Source: Thermoanaerobaculia bacterium (GTDB lineage Bacteria > Acidobacteriota > Thermoanaerobaculia > Multivoradales > UBA5704). From it: a DNA stretch of 64,000 bases. The stretch is taken from NCBI GenBank assembly GCA_044226625.1, contig JBGAGQ010000011.1:57736-121735 (forward strand). The letters run 5' to 3'. Each line of letters starts with the position of its first letter. The first letter of the stretch is position 1. The notes beneath the pieces are model-generated. The model made no database searches. It saw only the letters and a list, made by a program, of their open reading frames with translations, and was not told where the DNA came from. This document shows positions 3,318-55,026 of the stretch, one piece after another. The position numbers and the translations under genes were made by a program.

Positions 3318-4409
3318 ATGCGATCTTTTGAACGGCCCCTCGTCATCGACGGCCACACCGACGTCCCGACTCGCCTCTGGGAGGGGCCGGTCGACTTGTC
3401 GCTGCCGCAACGCGACCGGCAGGTCGACCTGCCGCGCCTGCGAGCGGGTGGCGTCGACGCTTTGGTCTGGGCGCTGTTCCTTCCCGCGAGCTTGGATCCC
3501 GCTTCCGGTCGCGAGCACGCGCGCCGGCTATATGAGATTTCCCTCGATCATCTCGTGCCGGGAGAGCTCGAAGGGGCGCGAAGCGCCGAGGACGTGAGGA
3601 AGAACGCCGCGCGCGGCGTCGTTTCCGTCCTGTTCGGCCTCGAAAACGGTCGGCCTTTGGCCCTTCCCGGGATGGTCGACGAGATTGCGCGCTGGGGCGT
3701 GCGCTACGTCACCCTCACCCATTTCGCCAGCCACGAATGGTGCGACGCCTCGACCGACGAGCCGCGCCATGGCGGTCTATCGCCCGCGGGGCGCGACCTC
3801 GTCCGACGGCTGAACGGAGCCGGCATCCTCCCCGACGTCTCGCACGTCTCGGATGCGGCGGTCGAGCAGGTTCTCGAGGTCTCGAAGGTCGCGCCGATCG
3901 CGAGCCACAGCTCGGCGCGTGCGCTTTGCGACCATCCGCGAAATCTTCCCGATGGATTGGTGCGCGAGATCGCAAGATGCGGCGGGGTCGTGATGGCGAA
4001 CAGCTTCCCCCCGTTCGTCGACCCCCGCGCGGCCTCGGCGCTCGTCGAAATCGAATCCGACCTCGCCGAGCCGATGCGGGAGCTTTCCGCGCGCTATTTC
4101 GCCGAGCCGGGTCGCGTCGCCCGCGAGCGGGCTCGGCTCTATGCGGATCGACGTCTCCCCGAAGCGACCCTCTCTCAATACGTCGATCATTTGATCCATT
4201 TGATCGAACTGGGCGGCGAAGAGCACGTAGGGATCGGCAGCGACTTCGACGGGATCCACGAGACGCTGCGCGGCTTCGAGAATCCGTCGAAATTTCCGGA
4301 TCTCGCGGATGCTCTGCTCGCCCGCGGGGTCGACAAGAGCGGCCTGCGGCTGATCCTCGGAGAGAACTTCCTGCGCGCGCTCGCGGCGGCCGAATCCGCG
4401 GCGCTCTGA
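3318..4409 (+). CDS. Membrane dipeptidase (peptidase M19 family)
   Basis: Motifs IDGHTD, GLENG, DVSHVS, ASHSSARAL, HVGIGSDFDG. Confidence 0.92.
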   Translation: MRSFERPLVIDGHTDVPTRLWEGPVDLSLPQRDRQVDLPRLRAGGVDALVWALFLPASLDPASGREHARRLYEISLDHLVPGELEGARSAEDVRKNAARGVVSVLFGLENGRPLALPGMVDEIARWGVRYVTLTHFASHEWCDASTDEPRHGGLSPAGRDLVRRLNGAGILPDVSHVSDAAVEQVLEVSKVAPIASHSSARALCDHPRNLPDGLVREIARCGGVVMANSFPPFVDPRAASALVEIESDLAEPMRELSARYFAEPGRVARERARLYADRRLPEATLSQYVDHLIHLIELGGEEHVGIGSDFDGIHETLRGFENPSKFPDLADALLARGVDKSGLRLILGENFLRALAAAESAAL

Positions 4410-10815: not shown

Positions 10816-10972
10816 CGCGTCACCATCCGAGGAAGCGTAAACCAACCGCCCCCCCGCCTTCTGAAAGCCCCCTCCTCGCCGGGGCATGGCAAAGCCATAG
10901 GCTGCGCCTGGGGCCTGGAGCGCCCCGGTCGAGGAGAGGGAGTTGTAACGCGGAGTTACTGCGAGGAACTAC

Positions 10973-11353
10973 TTACGCGGCTTCGGGGGAGGCGTTCGTC
11001 ACGGTCGGCTGGGCCTTTGCCTTCGTGCGCACCGGCGGGCGGCGCGGGCGGAAGCCGAACTTGACCAGGGTCTCACTGCCGAAACCGTGCTTCCACTGGA
11101 GGCTCGCGCCGATCCGGCGGCGCAGGCGGTCGCCTTCGAGCGCGAGGCTCTTGCGCTCGACCGTCATCCCCTGGGCCTCGGCGCGCAGCAGTTCCTGGTG
11201 CGCCTCGAACTCCCGGCTCTTGCGGAGGATCTCCTTGAGCTCCGCGACGTCGGCCGAAAGGTACGGCAGGTCGGGAAGGTCGGGCTCGAGGTTGGTGACG
11301 AGGGTTTCCCAGCGGCTGATGCGCGCGACGAGGGTCTGGCCGTTGGCAGCCAT
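10973..11353 (-). CDS. Hypothetical 126-aa helical protein with basic C-terminus
   Basis: AAAGGAG RBS then ATG at 11353; coiled-coil-like body ending in ...LVKFGFRPRRPP; directly downstream of the repeat element. Confidence 0.75.
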   Translation of the reverse strand: MAANGQTLVARISRWETLVTNLEPDLPDLPYLSADVAELKEILRKSREFEAHQELLRAEAQGMTVERKSLALEGDRLRRRIGASLQWKHGFGSETLVKFGFRPRRPPVRTKAKAQPTVTNASPEAA

Positions 11354-11425
11354 GATGCGGACTCCTTTTTCGCCTTGCGGCAAGGTGTGGGGTCGATCCC
11401 ACGCCGCGAGGGTAAACCACGAGGG

Positions 11426-11824
11426 TCCGAGAAAACGATAGTTTTTCGCGAACGAAGATTTTTTCTTCCGGGAAAGGGCGTCCGAGCCGGGCGGGTCTTT
11501 CTCCGGGCGGTCGATCCGACGGGGGAATGCAGTCGATGCGACCGTTGAAGCCCACGATGCGGCGGCGGAATCCGGTCGACGCGCCGGCCGAAGCCAGCGA
11601 TGCGAGCGCGGAATCGACCGGTTCGGCCTGTCGAAGCAACGGCTGCGGCGCCCGAATCGACTGGCTTCGATGGCCGAGTCGACCCGAGGAGGCGACGAAC
11701 CGACTGGATTCGAAGGTCGCATCGACCGGCTTCGGTCGCCGAAACGCCCTCTTGGGCCGTCCTAGGGAATCGGTGCGCCTCGGCGAAAAAAAGATCGCTC
11801 GTCAAAAACTATCGTTTTCTCGGA
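11426..11824. repeat. TIR-bounded non-coding element (MITE-like) with a 21/22-bp internal array, copy 1
   Basis: Perfect 21-bp inverted repeats at 11426-11446 and 11804-11824; internal GAA-initiated units at 11525, 11547, 11568, 11590, 11611, 11633, 11654, 11676, 11697, 11719, 11741. Confidence 0.85.
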
Positions 11825-11897
11825 GGGACCTCATGTACTCTCGGGTGGCCCGGTTCGGCATTTATATGCGGGCGACCTTCGCAACTCCCGGCTCGCC

Positions 11898-12422
11898 TTA
11901 CGCCGCATCCACCAAGTCGAGGCGGACCTTTAGATCCCTGAGCACGTAGAACGGGTCCCGGTAGCGGACTGCAAACTCCCTGCAGACATCGGGCAGCAGA
12001 ATACGGGCTCGCGAATCGGGCCGTGGCATCTCGTTCGTGACGACCTCCGTGCCGCGGACCATCGAATACGCGACCAGCCACCCATCCGCCTCGGTCGCGA
12101 ACTTGGCCTTGGCGCGGTCGAGGTATTTCGAGTTCCGCTGTACCCAGAGCATGATCTCGGCGTAGGCCGTACTAACGTCTGCGGCATTCGAGTCGACGAA
12201 AAAGCCGGCTGGGACGTCGTTCCTCACCCATTGCACGAGATCCTCTTCCTTCCGTCCTGCCAGCAGCTCGGCGCGAATTCGATCGAGGCTTTGGGCTCGG
12301 CCATGTCGGTGCGCTTGGAGAACCGCCTTCCAGAATCCCGGGCAGATCTCAAAGGCGTAGTAAGTGTTTTTGGCGGTAATGAAGACGTCCGCATCGAGCA
12401 GGTAGACGGGAGGCTTGCTCAC
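11898..12422 (-). CDS. DUF4411 family (PIN-like) protein
   Basis: YLLDADVFITAKNTYYAFEICPGFW...ADGWLVAY...VVTNE; GTG start overlaps the upstream stop (GTGA). Confidence 0.88.
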   Translation of the reverse strand: MSKPPVYLLDADVFITAKNTYYAFEICPGFWKAVLQAHRHGRAQSLDRIRAELLAGRKEEDLVQWVRNDVPAGFFVDSNAADVSTAYAEIMLWVQRNSKYLDRAKAKFATEADGWLVAYSMVRGTEVVTNEMPRPDSRARILLPDVCREFAVRYRDPFYVLRDLKVRLDLVDAA

Positions 12423-13570
12423 GGCAGGTCGACTCCGAGCCGGCGGGCGTACTCCTGGAACGCGCCCCCGCGGAGATCGGTGAGATCGTAGGCCTCCCGG
12501 AAGGTCAATCGCCCTTCCATCGCGGCGAAGATGACGCTGGCCGCGAACCTGGCACCGACGCGCGTATTTTGATTGTTGTAGAAGTCGCCGCCTCCGGAGG
12601 GCTTCGATTGCTGCCGCTCCGTCTTCGTGTAGGCGTCGTAGAACGCGAAGAAGGCCTTCCGGTCGACGAGTGCGAGATCCATCGCCCGACGGCCGGCCAC
12701 GATCTGGCTCACTTTGAAGTGCCGGGCAACCCGCTCGAACGCATCGTGTGCGCCTTTGATCGTTCGCCAGAGCTCCTTGAGCTCGGCCGCCGGCACGAGG
12801 AGCTCCGCCGCCGCCTGATCGCAGAACGTTTCGATCCGCGTGCCGCCGGGGAAAATGCCGTCGAAGCCCGAGAGCCCCTCGCCTTCCGAACCAAGCCAAA
12901 CGTGGGCGAGCTCGTGCGCGAGGGTGAACATCTGGGCCGACTTCGCATCCGCGCCGTTGACGAACACGAGCGGGGCGTAAGGGTCGCTCAGGGCGAATCC
13001 TCGAAACTCGTTCACGTCGAGCTTTCGGTGGGTGTCGTTGCCGACGACGCCATTGATGACCGCCATCACGCCGAGCTGCTCGATGCGACGCCGAAGCTCG
13101 CTGACCGCCTCCCGCCAGCTTGGGACCTTGGAGGCCCAGCCATCGTCGAGCCCGAGCATGCGGCGCATCTCTCGCCCGACCGCTGCCGGGTCGTCGCCGA
13201 GCCGCGCGCTGCCCACGAACTCCACGGGCTCCGCTTCGCTCTCGATGCGCGATTCCCGGAGCCAGTCCTGGCGCCGCTGCATGGCGTAAATGGTGTCGAG
13301 CAGATCGGCGCTGGGCCGCCCGGGGCTGCGAACGCCGGTTCGCAGGTCCCGGATCGGCAGCCGCTCGACGGGAGGCTCTGGAAGAAGCATGTACCCGAGC
13401 GGCGTGTGAGTTGCCTTCGCGAAGGCCTCGAGCTGTTTGAGCGTCGGCTGCCGCTCCTCACGCTCCCATGCCCCTAGCTGCGGAAAGCGAGTCGACAGCA
13501 CGAGCTCGTCGACCCGCGACCGTTCGACCGCCCAGCGCAAAAGCTCCGGCTTGACCTCGACACGCTGCAT
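12419..13570 (-). CDS. XRE-HTH + ImmA/IrrE family metallopeptidase
   Basis: N-terminal ELLRWA...WE...PTLKQLE HTH; FRGFAL, FTLAHELAHVW (HExxH), IETFCDQAAAE. Confidence 0.92.
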   Translation of the reverse strand: MQRVEVKPELLRWAVERSRVDELVLSTRFPQLGAWEREERQPTLKQLEAFAKATHTPLGYMLLPEPPVERLPIRDLRTGVRSPGRPSADLLDTIYAMQRRQDWLRESRIESEAEPVEFVGSARLGDDPAAVGREMRRMLGLDDGWASKVPSWREAVSELRRRIEQLGVMAVINGVVGNDTHRKLDVNEFRGFALSDPYAPLVFVNGADAKSAQMFTLAHELAHVWLGSEGEGLSGFDGIFPGGTRIETFCDQAAAELLVPAAELKELWRTIKGAHDAFERVARHFKVSQIVAGRRAMDLALVDRKAFFAFYDAYTKTERQQSKPSGGGDFYNNQNTRVGARFAASVIFAAMEGRLTFREAYDLTDLRGGAFQEYARRLGVDLP

Positions 13571-13812
13571 GGCCAGTTCCTGGCTCCTACTTTGGAAGGA
13601 TCCGAGCAGTCTAGTCCAACCTGACTGCGGTCTTATCTTACCGATCGCCGCCGTAACGAGTCGCGTGGAATTCTCTGGGCGGTCGAGGCGCTGCTCGAAA
13701 CGCAGGTGTCCGCCCCGGCCGTCGACGCTCCGATCCCGACCGCCTAACCTGCCGGCGGTCGTCCCCAAAAGCAAAACGCCCGAGAAGCTCGGGCGCTGGA
13801 AGGTCGAAGCTT

Positions 13813-13888
13813 TGGTAGCGCATACGGGATTCGAACCCGTGTTCCCGCCGTGAGAGGGCGACGTCCTAGACCCCTAGACGAATGCGCC
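13813..13888 (-). tRNA. tRNA-Glu (anticodon CTC)
   Basis: Reverse complement GGCGCATTCGTCTAG...CT-CTC-AC...GGTTCGAATCC...GCGCTACCA, 76 nt with encoded CCA. Confidence 0.97.
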
Positions 13889-36161: not shown

Positions 36162-36251
36162 GGAGGGGTGGCTGAGCGGTCGAAAGCAGCGGTCTTGAAA
36201 ACCGCCGGGCCTGCAAGGGTCCCATGGGTTCGAATCCCATCCCCTCCGCCA
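36162..36251 (+). tRNA. tRNA-Ser (anticodon TGA)
   Basis: GGAGGGG...GCGGT-CT-TGA-AA-ACCGC, long variable arm, GGTTCGAATCC...CCCCTCCGCCA. Confidence 0.97.
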
Positions 36252-36305
36252 CAAGGAATCGAGTTCGAATCCGTATGCCACTCCCTGCCAGACTGCCGCC
36301 GCAAG

Positions 36306-36720
36306 TTAGTTATGCCAGATCGATCCTCCCGGCAGCGCTCTTCCCGCCTCCGGAAATTGAGGGTGTCGCATAGTTTGATCATAAAAGCTCACCCCTGCCG
36401 ATGCCATTGCAGAAAATGCCCGCTGCTGCTGAATCGATGGAGTCGAGAGCCAACCCTGCTGATTCGCCTCATAAGCGAGAAGCCAATGCTCCCCTATCAG
36501 TGAATCGGATTGAGCGATCAAGTCAGCCCAACGGGTCTTTGTTAAAGAACCTCGCGGAAAGAGGCCGAGGTCCGCGGCATGCATCGCTAAGCGCAACAAC
36601 GTCGTCTTCGATCGCGTCGACAAGTTGCGCTGCGTCAGTGCTCAGAGCGACATCCCATGCCAGGGCACCCCAGAGCGCCCAGGCGAATAATGCCTGCCGA
36701 CAAGCGAGATCGCTACGAGC
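36306..36720 (-). pseudogene. Frameshifted C-terminal gene remnant, resembling the tail of Abi/UG-type reverse transcriptases
   Basis: Two frames join into AWALW...DDVVAL / ...EHWLLAYEA..QGWL...GVSFYD; no RT core (YxDD) present; family call is from recall only. Confidence 0.45.
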
Positions 36721-37222
36721 CAACCACTCGCCTGACGGTCCTCATCGGCAGCACGAGGCGGTGCGAATCGGGGAGCTTCACGAAACCATGAGCAGAATAG
36801 AATGCTGCAGCGGAGTCATCCAAAGCGTCCACCACGACCATGGATGAGCCCACGGTGTCCGAGCTCGCCAGCGCTCTTCGAAGCGCGTCGACCAGGAGGA
36901 CTGAGCCGAAGCCTTGGCCGTGGCAGCGCGCGGCGACGGCAAGGCGCCCGATCAGCGTAGCGCTGACCAGGGGGTATCGCGGAATGTACTTCCTCGCGGC
37001 TTCGGGAACGTCACCCGGAAGAAGCGCGGTCGCACAGAGCGTGTAGTACCCGAGGATCGTCTCAGGCTCTGCGTTCGCAATCAGAACGAAGACCGCATTG
37101 GCGTGGCGACGCATGTCCTGACCGGCCTGATGGTGCAGGTAAAGGTCGAGGCTTTCAACTCCGCAGGTGAACTCAGCCCGCCGATGGCCGTCGCGCAGCG
37201 GGACGACCGAATCGTCAGCCAC
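36713..37222 (-). CDS. GNAT acetyltransferase toxin (TacT/AtaT-like)
   Basis: FTCGVESLDLYL, ILGYYTL, LIGRLAV...GQGFG..LL, VVDA...FY...GF. Confidence 0.92.
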   Translation of the reverse strand: MADDSVVPLRDGHRRAEFTCGVESLDLYLHHQAGQDMRRHANAVFVLIANAEPETILGYYTLCATALLPGDVPEAARKYIPRYPLVSATLIGRLAVAARCHGQGFGSVLLVDALRRALASSDTVGSSMVVVDALDDSAAAFYSAHGFVKLPDSHRLVLPMRTVRRVVGS

Positions 37223-37225
37223 CCG

Positions 37226-37534
37226 TCAAACACCGACTCGGCGCTTGTGCGCGGCGATCGCGCGCACCAACCGCTCGTTCGGCTCGGGCGGGTGGATCAG
37301 CGCATCGAAAAACGCAGCCCGGTCGTTCTCAGACAGATGGAGCCCCTCGTGCTGTGCGATCGTCCGGCGGGCAGCCTCTGAGATAGCGGTCACGCAGAAG
37401 TCGCTGATCTTGCGGCGCTCGAGTTGTGCGGCACGCTCAATCAACTCCTTGGTCTGTTCGTCGATCCGGAATCCGAGACGGTCATCTCGGGTGATCCGAA
37501 TTTTCCGATTGGTACTGTGGCTGAGCATGCCCAC
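37226..37534 (-). CDS. DUF1778 RHH antitoxin (TacA/AtaR-like)
   Basis: RLGFRI...KELIERAA...SDF...LS..D...FFDALIHPPEPNERL; directly upstream of the GNAT gene. Confidence 0.92.
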   Translation of the reverse strand: MGMLSHSTNRKIRITRDDRLGFRIDEQTKELIERAAQLERRKISDFCVTAISEAARRTIAQHEGLHLSENDRAAFFDALIHPPEPNERLVRAIAAHKRRVGV

Positions 37535-37631
37535 CCCCTAGGTCACAGAATGTACACCCAAACGGCGCACAAGTCGAGAACAGGCCGCCGCTTCATCCCC
37601 GCGACCAATAACGAAGCGTCGAGGACGGCGC

Positions 37632-37868
37632 TCACCGGCGATCCGCGTCGCGGTGAGCCATGATTTCGGCTGCGGAGAGCCTTCTTTTCGACCTCGCGTT
37701 TCCTTTCTTTACCTGAGCCAGAAGCTGTTCGATCGGTGAGCGCGAGGCTAGGCGCTCCAGCTCGGCACGCAAGAACTCGTGCGTCGACTTGCCCACAAGG
37801 GCGGCCCGGGCGGCCAACTCTTTCTTGACGGCGTCCGGAATGTCACGGATGGTGATTTGAACTCCCAC
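37632..37868 (-). CDS. FitA/VapB-like RHH antitoxin, copy 1 (toxin truncated)
   Basis: QITIRDIPDAVKKELAARAALVGKS..EFLRAEL; the stop overlaps a GTG that starts MSAVLDASLLVA (PIN-like N-terminus), which then degenerates. Confidence 0.8.
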   Translation of the reverse strand: MGVQITIRDIPDAVKKELAARAALVGKSTHEFLRAELERLASRSPIEQLLAQVKKGNARSKRRLSAAEIMAHRDADRR

Positions 37869-37924
37869 GCCATGCTCATGGGAACTCTGCGGGCAAAATA
37901 CAAGCTGCGGTACGTGCCGCGGTA

Positions 37925-38266
37925 TTGTTTCGCCCGGATGGAGATCGCGTCCCCAATCTACGCGATCTACAATCCGTACCGAAGAAACCACCGGCGCCAG
38001 GCGCCGTCGCCCAGTCGTGCGACACTCTCCTCGACGTGGAGGAGATTCTCCTCGCCGGCTATCGGCGAATGACGCCCGCCGAAAAAATGGAGCGGGTCGC
38101 GGACCTCAGCCGCGCGGTCCAACAGTTGGCGCTAGCACGGATCCGGGCGCAGTATGGCCCGAACCTCAGCGAGCGCGAGGAGCGGCTCCGTCTGGGTTCG
38201 CTATGGCTCGACCGAGAGACCATGATCAAGGTATTCGGTTGGGACCCCGAAGTCGAGGGCTACTGA
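37925..38266 (+). CDS. Small hypothetical protein (antitoxin-like; start uncertain)
   Basis: LLAGYRRMTPAEKMERVADLSRAVQQLALARIRAQYG..LSERE..LRL; recalled as a family usually paired with a nucleotidyltransferase. Confidence 0.55.
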   Translation: MFRPDGDRVPNLRDLQSVPKKPPAPGAVAQSCDTLLDVEEILLAGYRRMTPAEKMERVADLSRAVQQLALARIRAQYGPNLSEREERLRLGSLWLDRETMIKVFGWDPEVEGY

Positions 38267-38368
38267 AGTGGGCGCCCGCGGGTGTCGCGCCTTGGCCGAG
38301 GCCGGTGCTTTCTTGACTTGACTAGGTGCCCGAGGAGTAACTGGGCTGGAGGCTAACCCAGGAGAGTG

Positions 38369-38801
38369 CGAGAAAACGATAGATTTCGGCGAACTTTCTT
38401 TTTTCGCTTGCTCGCGCGAGGCCCCGCAGGAGTAGAACCGTCGAGTTTCGCCGACCTCGGCACACCGATGCGCTGTTGGTGCCCGGCCATTTGGCGCCTT
38501 GGAGAATGGGTTCGAAGGCTGAGTCCGGTGCATTCGACGACGAAACCCACGGGATGCGAGGCCGAATGCGGTGGATGCGATCGCGGAATCCAGTGGATTC
38601 GGCGGCCGAACCGAGCGCTGACTCCGGAGAACCCACAGGATTACGTGGTCGAATCGAGCGGTGAATCCGAGGAAACCACCGGATTCGACCGCCCAATCGA
38701 CTCGATTCGACCATGCGATCGAAGGCTGCATCCGCCCGATGCACCTTGTGCGACCCCGCGGACGAAGATTCTTCGCCAAAAACTATCGTTTTCTCGGACC
38801 C
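38369..38801. repeat. TIR-bounded non-coding element (MITE-like) with a 21/22-bp internal array, copy 2
   Basis: CGAGAAAACGATAGATTT at 38369-38386 and AAAAACTATCGTTTTCTCGGACCC at 38778-38801; units at 38521, 38542, 38564, 38586, 38608, 38629, 38651, 38672, 38694. Confidence 0.85.
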
Positions 38802-38850
38802 ACCTGTTTTATCGTGCCAGCCAACCCACACAGCGCCGCGAGGACGGCGC

Positions 38851-39087
38851 TCACCGGCGATCCGCGTCGCGGTGACTCAGGATCTCGCTAGCCGAGAGCC
38901 TTGTTTTCGACTTCGCTTTTCGTTTCGGGACTCGAGCTAGAAGCTTCTCGACCGACGGGCGCGAGGCGATGCGCTCCAACTCAGTTCGGAGGAACTCCTG
39001 CATCGACTTGCCTGCCAGAGCGGCTCTGGCGGCGAGCTCGTCCTTCACGGCGTCCGGAACGTCTCGGATGGTGATTTGAACGGCCAT
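38851..39087 (-). CDS. FitA/VapB-like RHH antitoxin, copy 2 (toxin deleted)
   Basis: MAVQITIRDVPDAVKDELAARAALAGKSMQEFL...HRDADRR, a close paralog of copy 1; followed only by GTGAGCGCCGTCCTC (MSAVL). Confidence 0.82.
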   Translation of the reverse strand: MAVQITIRDVPDAVKDELAARAALAGKSMQEFLRTELERIASRPSVEKLLARVPKRKAKSKTRLSASEILSHRDADRR

Positions 39088-39241
39088 ATCGCGATCATGG
39101 GGAACCTGCCCGCAAAATGGAAGTAGGGGTGGCTGGCGAGCCGCGGACCCCATCGCGGCCACTGCGATTCAGTTTCGTCGCAGCCAGGTTGACTAGGAAA
39201 CTATCTCGATGTAGTTACCTGATCAACCATCGGAGAATCCC

Positions 39242-54905: not shown

Positions 54906-54987
54906 GACACCTCCCGGAACGCGGCCGGGGCGTCCGATCCGACGGGACGAGTGCCGCAAACCTCTGACAACAAGGGGTTTGCGAATC

Positions 54988-55026
54988 TATTCACGGCGTG
55001 AATACAATTTATTCACGGCATGAATA
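54988..55026. promoter_or_regulatory. Tandem palindromic operator-like sites
   Basis: TATTCACGGCGTGAATA (54988-55004) and TATTCACGGCATGAATA (55010-55026), 22 bp apart. Confidence 0.6.

Follow-up and report, generated by a model that had tools for sequence, protein, structure and literature searches.

The question raised by this locus is what kind of element is formed by a pair of perfect inverted repeats that enclose a helically phased tandem array in intergenic DNA. The window, i.e. the whole 64,000-nucleotide stretch of Thermoanaerobaculia DNA that was analysed, holds two such elements, the first of which (copy 1) was described in an earlier note as either a non-autonomous mobile element or an iteron- or centromere-like protein-loading platform with divergent promoters. 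Copy 1 is confirmed here as real and non-coding; it has a defined anatomy, belongs to a unit that is conserved among related genomes, and that unit has been copied to unrelated places. We hold, with moderate confidence, that it is the control region of a small coiled-coil gene, composed of a phased loading array and a promoter, that has secondarily spread as a mobile cassette. The adjacent gene, which is the conserved partner of the array, and the presence of more than 100 further arrays of this kind in the genome had been overlooked in the earlier note.

Anatomy of copy 1

The gene that copy 1 adjoins (10973–11353, minus strand) encodes an orphan helical-hairpin protein of 126 aa with a basic C-terminal tail, and is followed by a GC-rich hairpin (10869–10946, minus strand) that is probably its terminator; a similar hairpin follows the orthologues L090 and L098. 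Upstream of the gene is a conserved leader (11354–11403, minus strand), present also in congener orthologues; it contains two hairpins of small size and carries the ribosome-binding site AAGGAG (11362–11367). Next comes a -10-like hexamer, TACCCT (11409–11414, minus strand), which is directed at the small gene and holds the same position in orthologues. Beyond it lie the left 21-bp arm (11426–11446, plus strand), which forms the conserved box of the left promoter-like module (positions -24 to -44, approximately), and a T-tract (11454–11468, plus strand), i.e. an A-tract on the promoter strand at about -52 to -61; columns +26 to +35 are T-rich in the 31 ends of the genome, and the tract may act in the manner of an UP element. 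The array (11525–11755) has 11 units with a period of 21.6 bp (a 43-bp dimer), built of degenerate 15-bp dyads (consensus GAATCCA-S-TGGATTC) with 6–7-bp spacers. The right promoter-like module (11785–11841, plus strand) consists of an A-tract, the second 21-bp arm (11804–11824) and the -10-like hexamer TACTCT (11836–11841), and is directed antisense into a DUF4411 gene. Copy 2 (38350–38815) comprises two outward-facing modules that flank an array of the 43-bp class, without the small gene.

Much of what the earlier note had read from the letters is present as described. The arms (left on the plus strand, right on the minus strand) are inverted repeats, perfect over 21 bp and matched by none of 100 shuffles, and both -10-like hexamers point outward. 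Unit starts run from 11525 to 11741 in steps of 22, 21, 22, 21, 22, 21, 22, 21, 22 and 22 bp (mean 21.6 bp), exactly as claimed, and GAA opens nine of the 11 units. Self-identity at a lag of 43 bp is 0.58 (z 9.2 against 500 dinucleotide shuffles, the best z of which at any lag has a 99th percentile of 3.8). The claimed unit of about 21.6 bp stands as a spacing, but the true repeat unit is a 43-bp dimer in which alternate units are poor dyads: five alternate units together with unit 10 fit the 15-bp dyad consensus at 10–13 of 15 positions, and the other five fit at 6–8 of 15. Stop codons occur in six of six frames of the whole element and in just one of six frames of the 250-bp array alone; its non-coding status, also claimed earlier, follows instead from the alternation of 21- and 22-bp steps and from the changing order of these steps among orthologues.

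Neither the Rfam search nor searches of plasmid and phage collections gave a match to the element, and a single viral match, AT-rich and coding-like, was taken as chance. As the earlier note had argued from the short spacers, copy 1 is not a CRISPR array, given spacers of 6–7 bp, degenerate units and the lack of an Rfam match. A right end in helical phase with the array was rejected (the offsets of 97 and 89 bp give different phases), as was an array of GANTC methylation sites (0 to 13 GANTC per array, not dominant). Elsewhere in the window, a 22-bp AT-rich unit is present in two copies with 90% identity (54984–55026).

The neighbours of copy 1 are an IrrE-like gene, the DUF4411 gene, an MFS gene and an orphan gene; Rep, ParA and ParB are absent from the neighbours scanned, and the iteron- or centromere-like part of the earlier proposal is thus not supported. 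Copy 1 is located in an island that follows a tRNA gene, beside the IrrE-like HTH/peptidase gene and the DUF4411 gene (11898–13888). Copy 2 also follows a tRNA gene, in a toxin–antitoxin cluster (36162–39090) that has a GNAT–TacA pair and two FitA-like antitoxin genes (37632–37865 and 38851–39087); behind each of the latter, no more than the opening codons of a probable PIN toxin gene remain. A 76-aa orphan ORF without a Pfam match (38036–38266, plus strand) has relatives just downstream of the small helical gene in the congeners G002 and G004.

End modules as promoter-like units

There are 31 ends in the genome, distributed over 19 loci as eight short inverted pairs (91–134 bp), four long pairs and seven solo ends, and thus far more than the two copies visible in the window. 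A genome-wide search with an end profile revealed no copy beyond these 31 and none in a control genome. All four long pairs enclose a 21/22-bp array, and these are the four period-43 arrays of the genome. Each end module is about 55 bp in length and reads outward as an A-tract, the conserved box, a spacer of fixed length and variable sequence, and TAnnnT. The first T, the A and the last T (T1, A2 and T6) of TAnnnT are invariant in 31 of 31 ends, in line with the -10 boxes of the earlier note; the ends were chosen by their core alone, and the -10 positions played no part in the choice. Because the ends were selected on the box, the invariance of the box itself is partly built in. The box occupies positions of about -25 to -39, i.e. 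in place of a -35 element, and the minimal motif is found 21 times at a spacer of 11 and at most five times at any other spacer from 7 to 16. It is these invariant bases and the fixed-length spacer of variable sequence that lead us to describe the end as a -10-box pattern rather than a transposon end.

The left end of copy 1 has a sigma70-type layout, with TAnnnT at a fixed distance from an upstream element, followed by a leader, a ribosome-binding site and a start codon. A consensus promoter scan of the element found nothing, as expected where the canonical TTGACA -35 is absent and the conserved box stands in its place; contigs of a single RNA run gave no cover on the element. The palindrome AAAAC-N4-GTTTT that the earlier note saw within the arm is present in copy 1, but its right half varies across the genus (35 of 67 ends have T at column +14). 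The end motif itself is limited to the genus: it was found in six of seven congeners and in none of 84 other genomes of the family, and its model had no match in 117 genomes of the order outside the genus. Ten of 11 exact core matches in a contig database come from unrelated taxa and lack the surrounding module.

The ends show no preferred orientation towards neighbouring genes: 13 point at a tRNA or at a gene in the sense direction, 15 at a gene in the antisense direction and three at neither, after the tally had been corrected by hand for an overlooked FitA-like gene, a tRNA and a pseudogene. Such indifference would be expected of cassettes that land regardless of their neighbours. The end is also found before three other subfamilies of the small gene. 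Upstream of the paralogues L126 and L127, which are two of the three paralogues without an array call, there is a second box variant that agrees with the first in its final seven bases and in its distance from a TAnnnT-like hexamer. Several other neighbourhoods of ends were recorded. At L007 (6384–7155) and L118 (1118–1947), a conserved operon of a pterin-4a-dehydratase-like gene and the small helical gene lies behind an end, near XRE-HTH genes, and is kept in G001, G002, G003 and G006; a multi-copy 144-aa orphan family, with several members per congener, repeatedly adjoins ends (e.g. L011, 4557–4991, minus strand). At L016 (about 3950–4100), a short pair is situated between a PIN toxin gene and the DNA on the side away from cas2. 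At L015 (about 3957–4000), a nucleotidyltransferase antitoxin gene precedes a partner gene, probably of the HEPN kind, of which just the beginning is present before it breaks off near an end.

An array lies directly downstream of 10 of the 31 ends, and the copy-1 element has a better predicted fold than any of 100 shuffles (z -5.45), as would be expected if the modules transcribed repeat RNAs that serve as decoys or antisense regulators. We consider a role as RNA very unlikely: both copy-1 promoters face away from the array, the folding follows from the inverted repeats, Rfam offers no match, and helical phasing would have no clear meaning for an RNA.

The small gene, its protein and the phased arrays

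Congeners hold 11 close copies of the small gene (68–79% identity). An end faces the gene at all 11 orthologues (73–76 bp upstream in 10), and a 21/22-bp array is present at all 10 orthologous loci with enough sequence. A second, away-facing end is found at none of the 10 orthologous loci with 1.4 kb of upstream DNA. The inverted pair is therefore local, and the earlier note's view that inverted repeats define the element is not supported; the conserved unit is not bounded by them, and the right arm of copy 1 is an extra copy of the promoter module, which creates the look of terminal inverted repeats. Only two pairs of orthologous loci have a neighbour gene in common, and we conclude that array, promoter and gene have been copied as a unit to unrelated places. 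The layout of an array, a single end and the same gene family recurs at seven metagenome loci, of which about four are distinct; 50 of 59 metagenome matches had been dropped because they failed a filter on GC content or profile. The gene start and the left end are also retained in a strain from a separate study. The ends at L030 are identical to those of the G006 locus L018.

One orthologous locus, on C11, departs from this order: the promoter is missing between array and gene, and an end is present on the far side of the array. This swap, the inverted arms and the dyad core around a 6-bp centre would fit an invertible segment, in which the arms are recombinase sites and a flip changes the promoter that faces the gene. 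We regard inversion as extremely unlikely, since the -10 boxes lie outside the perfect arms and would not be exchanged by a flip, the dyad is not conserved, the assembly has only two tyrosine recombinases, and the contigs of four runs (which drop rare forms) contain no strand-change joint. Joints that skip the array do occur in these contigs and are most simply explained by short pairs elsewhere.

The genome encodes 19 paralogues of the 126-aa protein, the family of which comprises 1,484 clusters at 50% identity; the named homologues, like the one congener locus with a named record, are from Thermoanaerobaculia MAGs. Members are found in 81 of 91 genomes of the family, at 4–45 copies each, in none of 10 genomes of the genus g10, and in none of 150 genomes of a phylum sample searched by profile. 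The array and the gene are thus family-wide and the end motif is limited to one genus, so this promoter is not an essential part of the arrangement.

A Pfam search of the protein returned no family, and none of 134 DUF6261 (PF19775) members matched it at E 0.01, which leaves an Atlas score of 0.77 for that family as a lead only. The predicted fold is a helical hairpin (pLDDT 85.9; helices 8–28, 30–89 and 94–99), in which a 60-residue helix is followed by a conserved motif (G90, L96, G100, P103) and then by the basic tail. Foldseek gave no fold match at E 0.001, the best VIA structure match (Z 6.4) was to generic helices only, and matches to PDB sequences were coiled coils; the family and fold searches revealed no recognised DNA-binding domain. 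Modelling predicts an antiparallel dimer with a length of roughly two DNA turns. The homodimer model scored 0.62, versus 0.11 for the best of three controls, with at least 93% contact agreement between runs and a partner pLDDT of at least 85; this mark was attained by 20 of 30 solved homodimers and by one of 23 single chains. Modelled contacts (39–77, 42–74 and 49–70) correspond to antiparallel packing about residues 58–60, which would place the two C-terminal motifs about 70–90 Å apart (1.5 Å per residue, by arithmetic on a predicted structure), compared with 71–75 Å for 21–22 bp of B-DNA. It is the position of the gene and the basic tail of its product that suggest DNA binding.

The arrays themselves are a genome-wide feature. 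In an unbiased census of intergenic lags from 8 to 100, the peaks fall at 20 and 21 and at multiples of these, lags of 41 and 43 are represented too, and shuffles have no peaks. A fixed detector called 126 arrays with periods of 20–21.5 bp, 114 of which are non-coding, versus two at control lags. They occur about once per 50 kb and fall into many unrelated sequence families among the matches listed, i.e. the two-turn geometry is held while the sequence drifts. In 14 arrays of the copy-1 class the unit is a 15-bp dyad, with 110 of 146 intervals being 21 or 22 bp and 13 more being 43 bp. An array lies within 900 bp upstream of 16 of the 19 small-gene paralogues and of 88 of 4319 called genes (a simple caller was used, which missed some small genes). 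In other genera, an array lies upstream of 15 of 25 homologues and downstream of one of 25, after exclusion of one locus with too little upstream DNA. Fifteen of the 19 end loci have an array nearby and four do not; in seven of the eight short pairs the array lies outside the pair. Outside the window on the same contig, a further paralogue (G000 C123:4192–4950, L122) has a 42-bp-class array of a different sequence family.

The arrays are also sparse in a genome of g10, the sister genus from which the protein is absent: 700 kb of it gave three array calls, two of them non-coding and all with lags divisible by three, versus 28 calls, 25 of them non-coding, in 800 kb of two protein-bearing genomes. 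In 400 kb of a genome from another family there were three calls, one of which is a 5-bp repeat. This comparison covers one genome per contrast and one genus, and is not phylogenetic.

These observations bear on a more ordinary explanation, in which the box would be the operator of a regulator and the arrays would be neutral minisatellites, produced by slippage or template switching in permissive intergenic DNA. XRE-HTH genes do accompany some solo ends (behind them on C38 and C69, nearby on C57), the arrays change fast and differ by locus, and array and gene may be merely co-inherited; nevertheless, an ordinary regulon with neutral arrays seems improbable to us, because the period of 20–21.5 bp is kept across unrelated sequences (126 arrays against two at control lags), the arrays lie upstream and not downstream of the gene, and they are depleted in the genome without the protein.

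According to the reading that we favour, the order at copy 1 would be a phased dyad array, a sigma70-type promoter in which a fixed box of about 15 bp replaces the -35 element and makes it dependent on a factor, a leader and the gene. Protein loading, which the earlier note had offered as one of its alternatives, would still best account for the array: an antiparallel dimer of about two helical turns, with basic tails at both ends, may load side by side on 20–21.5-bp arrays along one face of the DNA. Such loading would autoregulate the protein's own genes, and at the roughly 100 orphan arrays the loaded dimers would insulate the chromosome or help to organise it. Within a single branch of the genus, this promoter module would in addition have spread in pairs placed back to back, some of them with an array and some without. 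As the arrays outnumber the small genes by about six to one and differ in sequence, it is an assumption that a single protein family reads all of them, and the three of 19 paralogues and four of 19 end loci without an array count against this account, as does the lack of orientation bias among the ends. A bolder version holds that the coiled-coil dimer is a two-turn ruler that polymerises on any 20–21.5-bp dyad array, with paralogues matched to array families, and that modules of gene, promoter and array copy themselves without a recognised transposase and seed more than 100 architectural sites per genome; we regard this version as possible but doubtful.

Mobility and relation to known systems

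The earlier note's mobile element survives in part. Three elements have empty sites in congeners, namely C97 (in G003 and G007), C46 (in G006) and C93 (in G007), whereas no target duplication is visible and no IS630-type (DDE_3) transposase was found in the 133-contig assembly. The junctions of the empty sites are ragged and at least 24 bp outside TA, in congeners that are only about 80% alike; four further loci offered no usable empty site. The suggested adjacency to no transposase is borne out, none of the 31 ends lying beside a recognised transposase or integrase (four solo ends are within 1.3 kb of contig ends), and the insertion sequence with the same ends that the note had envisaged did not emerge, as the profile finds only the 31 ends. 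Neither the two tyrosine recombinases nor the one Y1 gene of the assembly has an end near it (the Y1 locus spans 3.2 kb).

A true MITE with an internal minisatellite would have ends that are transposase sites, TA as a duplicated target, the array as a passenger and the gene as a captured sequence or a neighbour. The 12 inverted pairs, eight of them of 91–134 bp, accord with this view, as do the unbiased orientation of the ends, the empty sites of three elements, the two toxin genes that break off near an end, and the restriction to one genus. We nonetheless think a MITE unlikely. The bases flanking TA are the least conserved stretch of the end, and the base 4 bp outside TA is invariant; the C97 empty sites lack a matching TA target and all junctions lie outside TA, although this point is weakened by the divergence of the congeners. 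There is, moreover, no DDE_3 transposase and no end near the recombinase or Y1 genes, single ends persist before the gene, and the array is outside in seven of eight short pairs. Neither the conservation profile nor the empty sites support a TA target duplication of an IS630/Tc1-like element.

Other origins were considered and set aside. Local inverted duplication does not explain the pairs, in which an end resembles its partner no more closely than it does a random end (mean rank 13 of 30); the right end of copy 1 does have the left end as its closest match (rank 1 of 30, 58%). A likeness of the ends to dif-type or attC sites was discarded, in that the dyad is not conserved and the copies are not in cassette arrays. 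REP and REPIN sequences are GC-rich hairpins with a 5' tetranucleotide, copies of which flank a RAYT gene; they, too, were rejected because the single Y1 gene has no end in its locus and the end is not a GC hairpin.

In the literature searched (mostly open-access main texts), there is no account of these arrays or of the end motif in Thermoanaerobaculia. The closest published forms are BrickBuilt and MITEPgRS, which combine inverted ends, a minisatellite and outward promoters (PMC4596501, PMC2575886). BrickBuilt of Porphyromonas gingivalis is intergenic, with about 19 loci per genome, 23-nt tandem units, outward promoter activity in its flanks, a narrow host range and many one-ended copies; its ends correspond to those of IS5-family elements in its own genome, and target duplications are seen at some copies (PMC4596501). 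The present elements resemble it in their intergenic position, number of loci, tandem units of nearly two turns, outward promoters (predicted here), narrow range and one-ended copies, and differ in that no matching insertion sequence or target duplication was found, that one end constitutes a promoter-like site conserved in a gene family (for BrickBuilt, the text consulted mentions no linked gene), and that unrelated arrays share the period. MITEPgRS/MITE464 similarly has inverted ends around variable tandem internal repeats, but its ends are those of ISPg1 (PMC2575886), whereas no cognate insertion sequence was found here. We have not filed the element as a MITE, since neither a cognate insertion sequence nor target duplications came to light and it is the single end that is conserved.

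Like the sopC centromere of plasmid F, which has about 12 repeats in a 43-bp register, each with a dyad of about 16 bp, beside a protein gene (PMC3177203), the copy-1 array has dyads on a 43-bp register beside a protein gene. Unlike sopC, the arrays studied here are chromosomal, occupy more than 100 loci, have degenerate units with a dyad per 21.5 bp and are associated with a helical-hairpin protein, and ParA and ParB are absent from the neighbours of copy 1. Putative mobile promoters are near-identical promoter-region sequences before unrelated genes, mostly in pairs and with an unexplained mechanism of spread (PMC3575422); by comparison, the end module has 31 copies, is often arranged back to back, and is linked both to phased arrays and to a single gene family. 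T4 middle promoters (PMC2988021) have a -10 hexamer and a fixed box about 12 bp upstream instead of a -35 element, a likeness of layout only, the sequence here being different.

If phase-dependent binding is true, it would provide a function for bacterial minisatellites that are now filed as passengers of MITEs, and would suggest a protein of a new type, with a role in regulation or in organising the chromosome. Within one genus, the paired promoter module offers a clear example of how a promoter becomes a dispersed repeat. For this widespread, uncultured family of Acidobacteriota, a candidate reader, a lineage that lacks it and a defined promoter make the question of what the arrays do a testable one.
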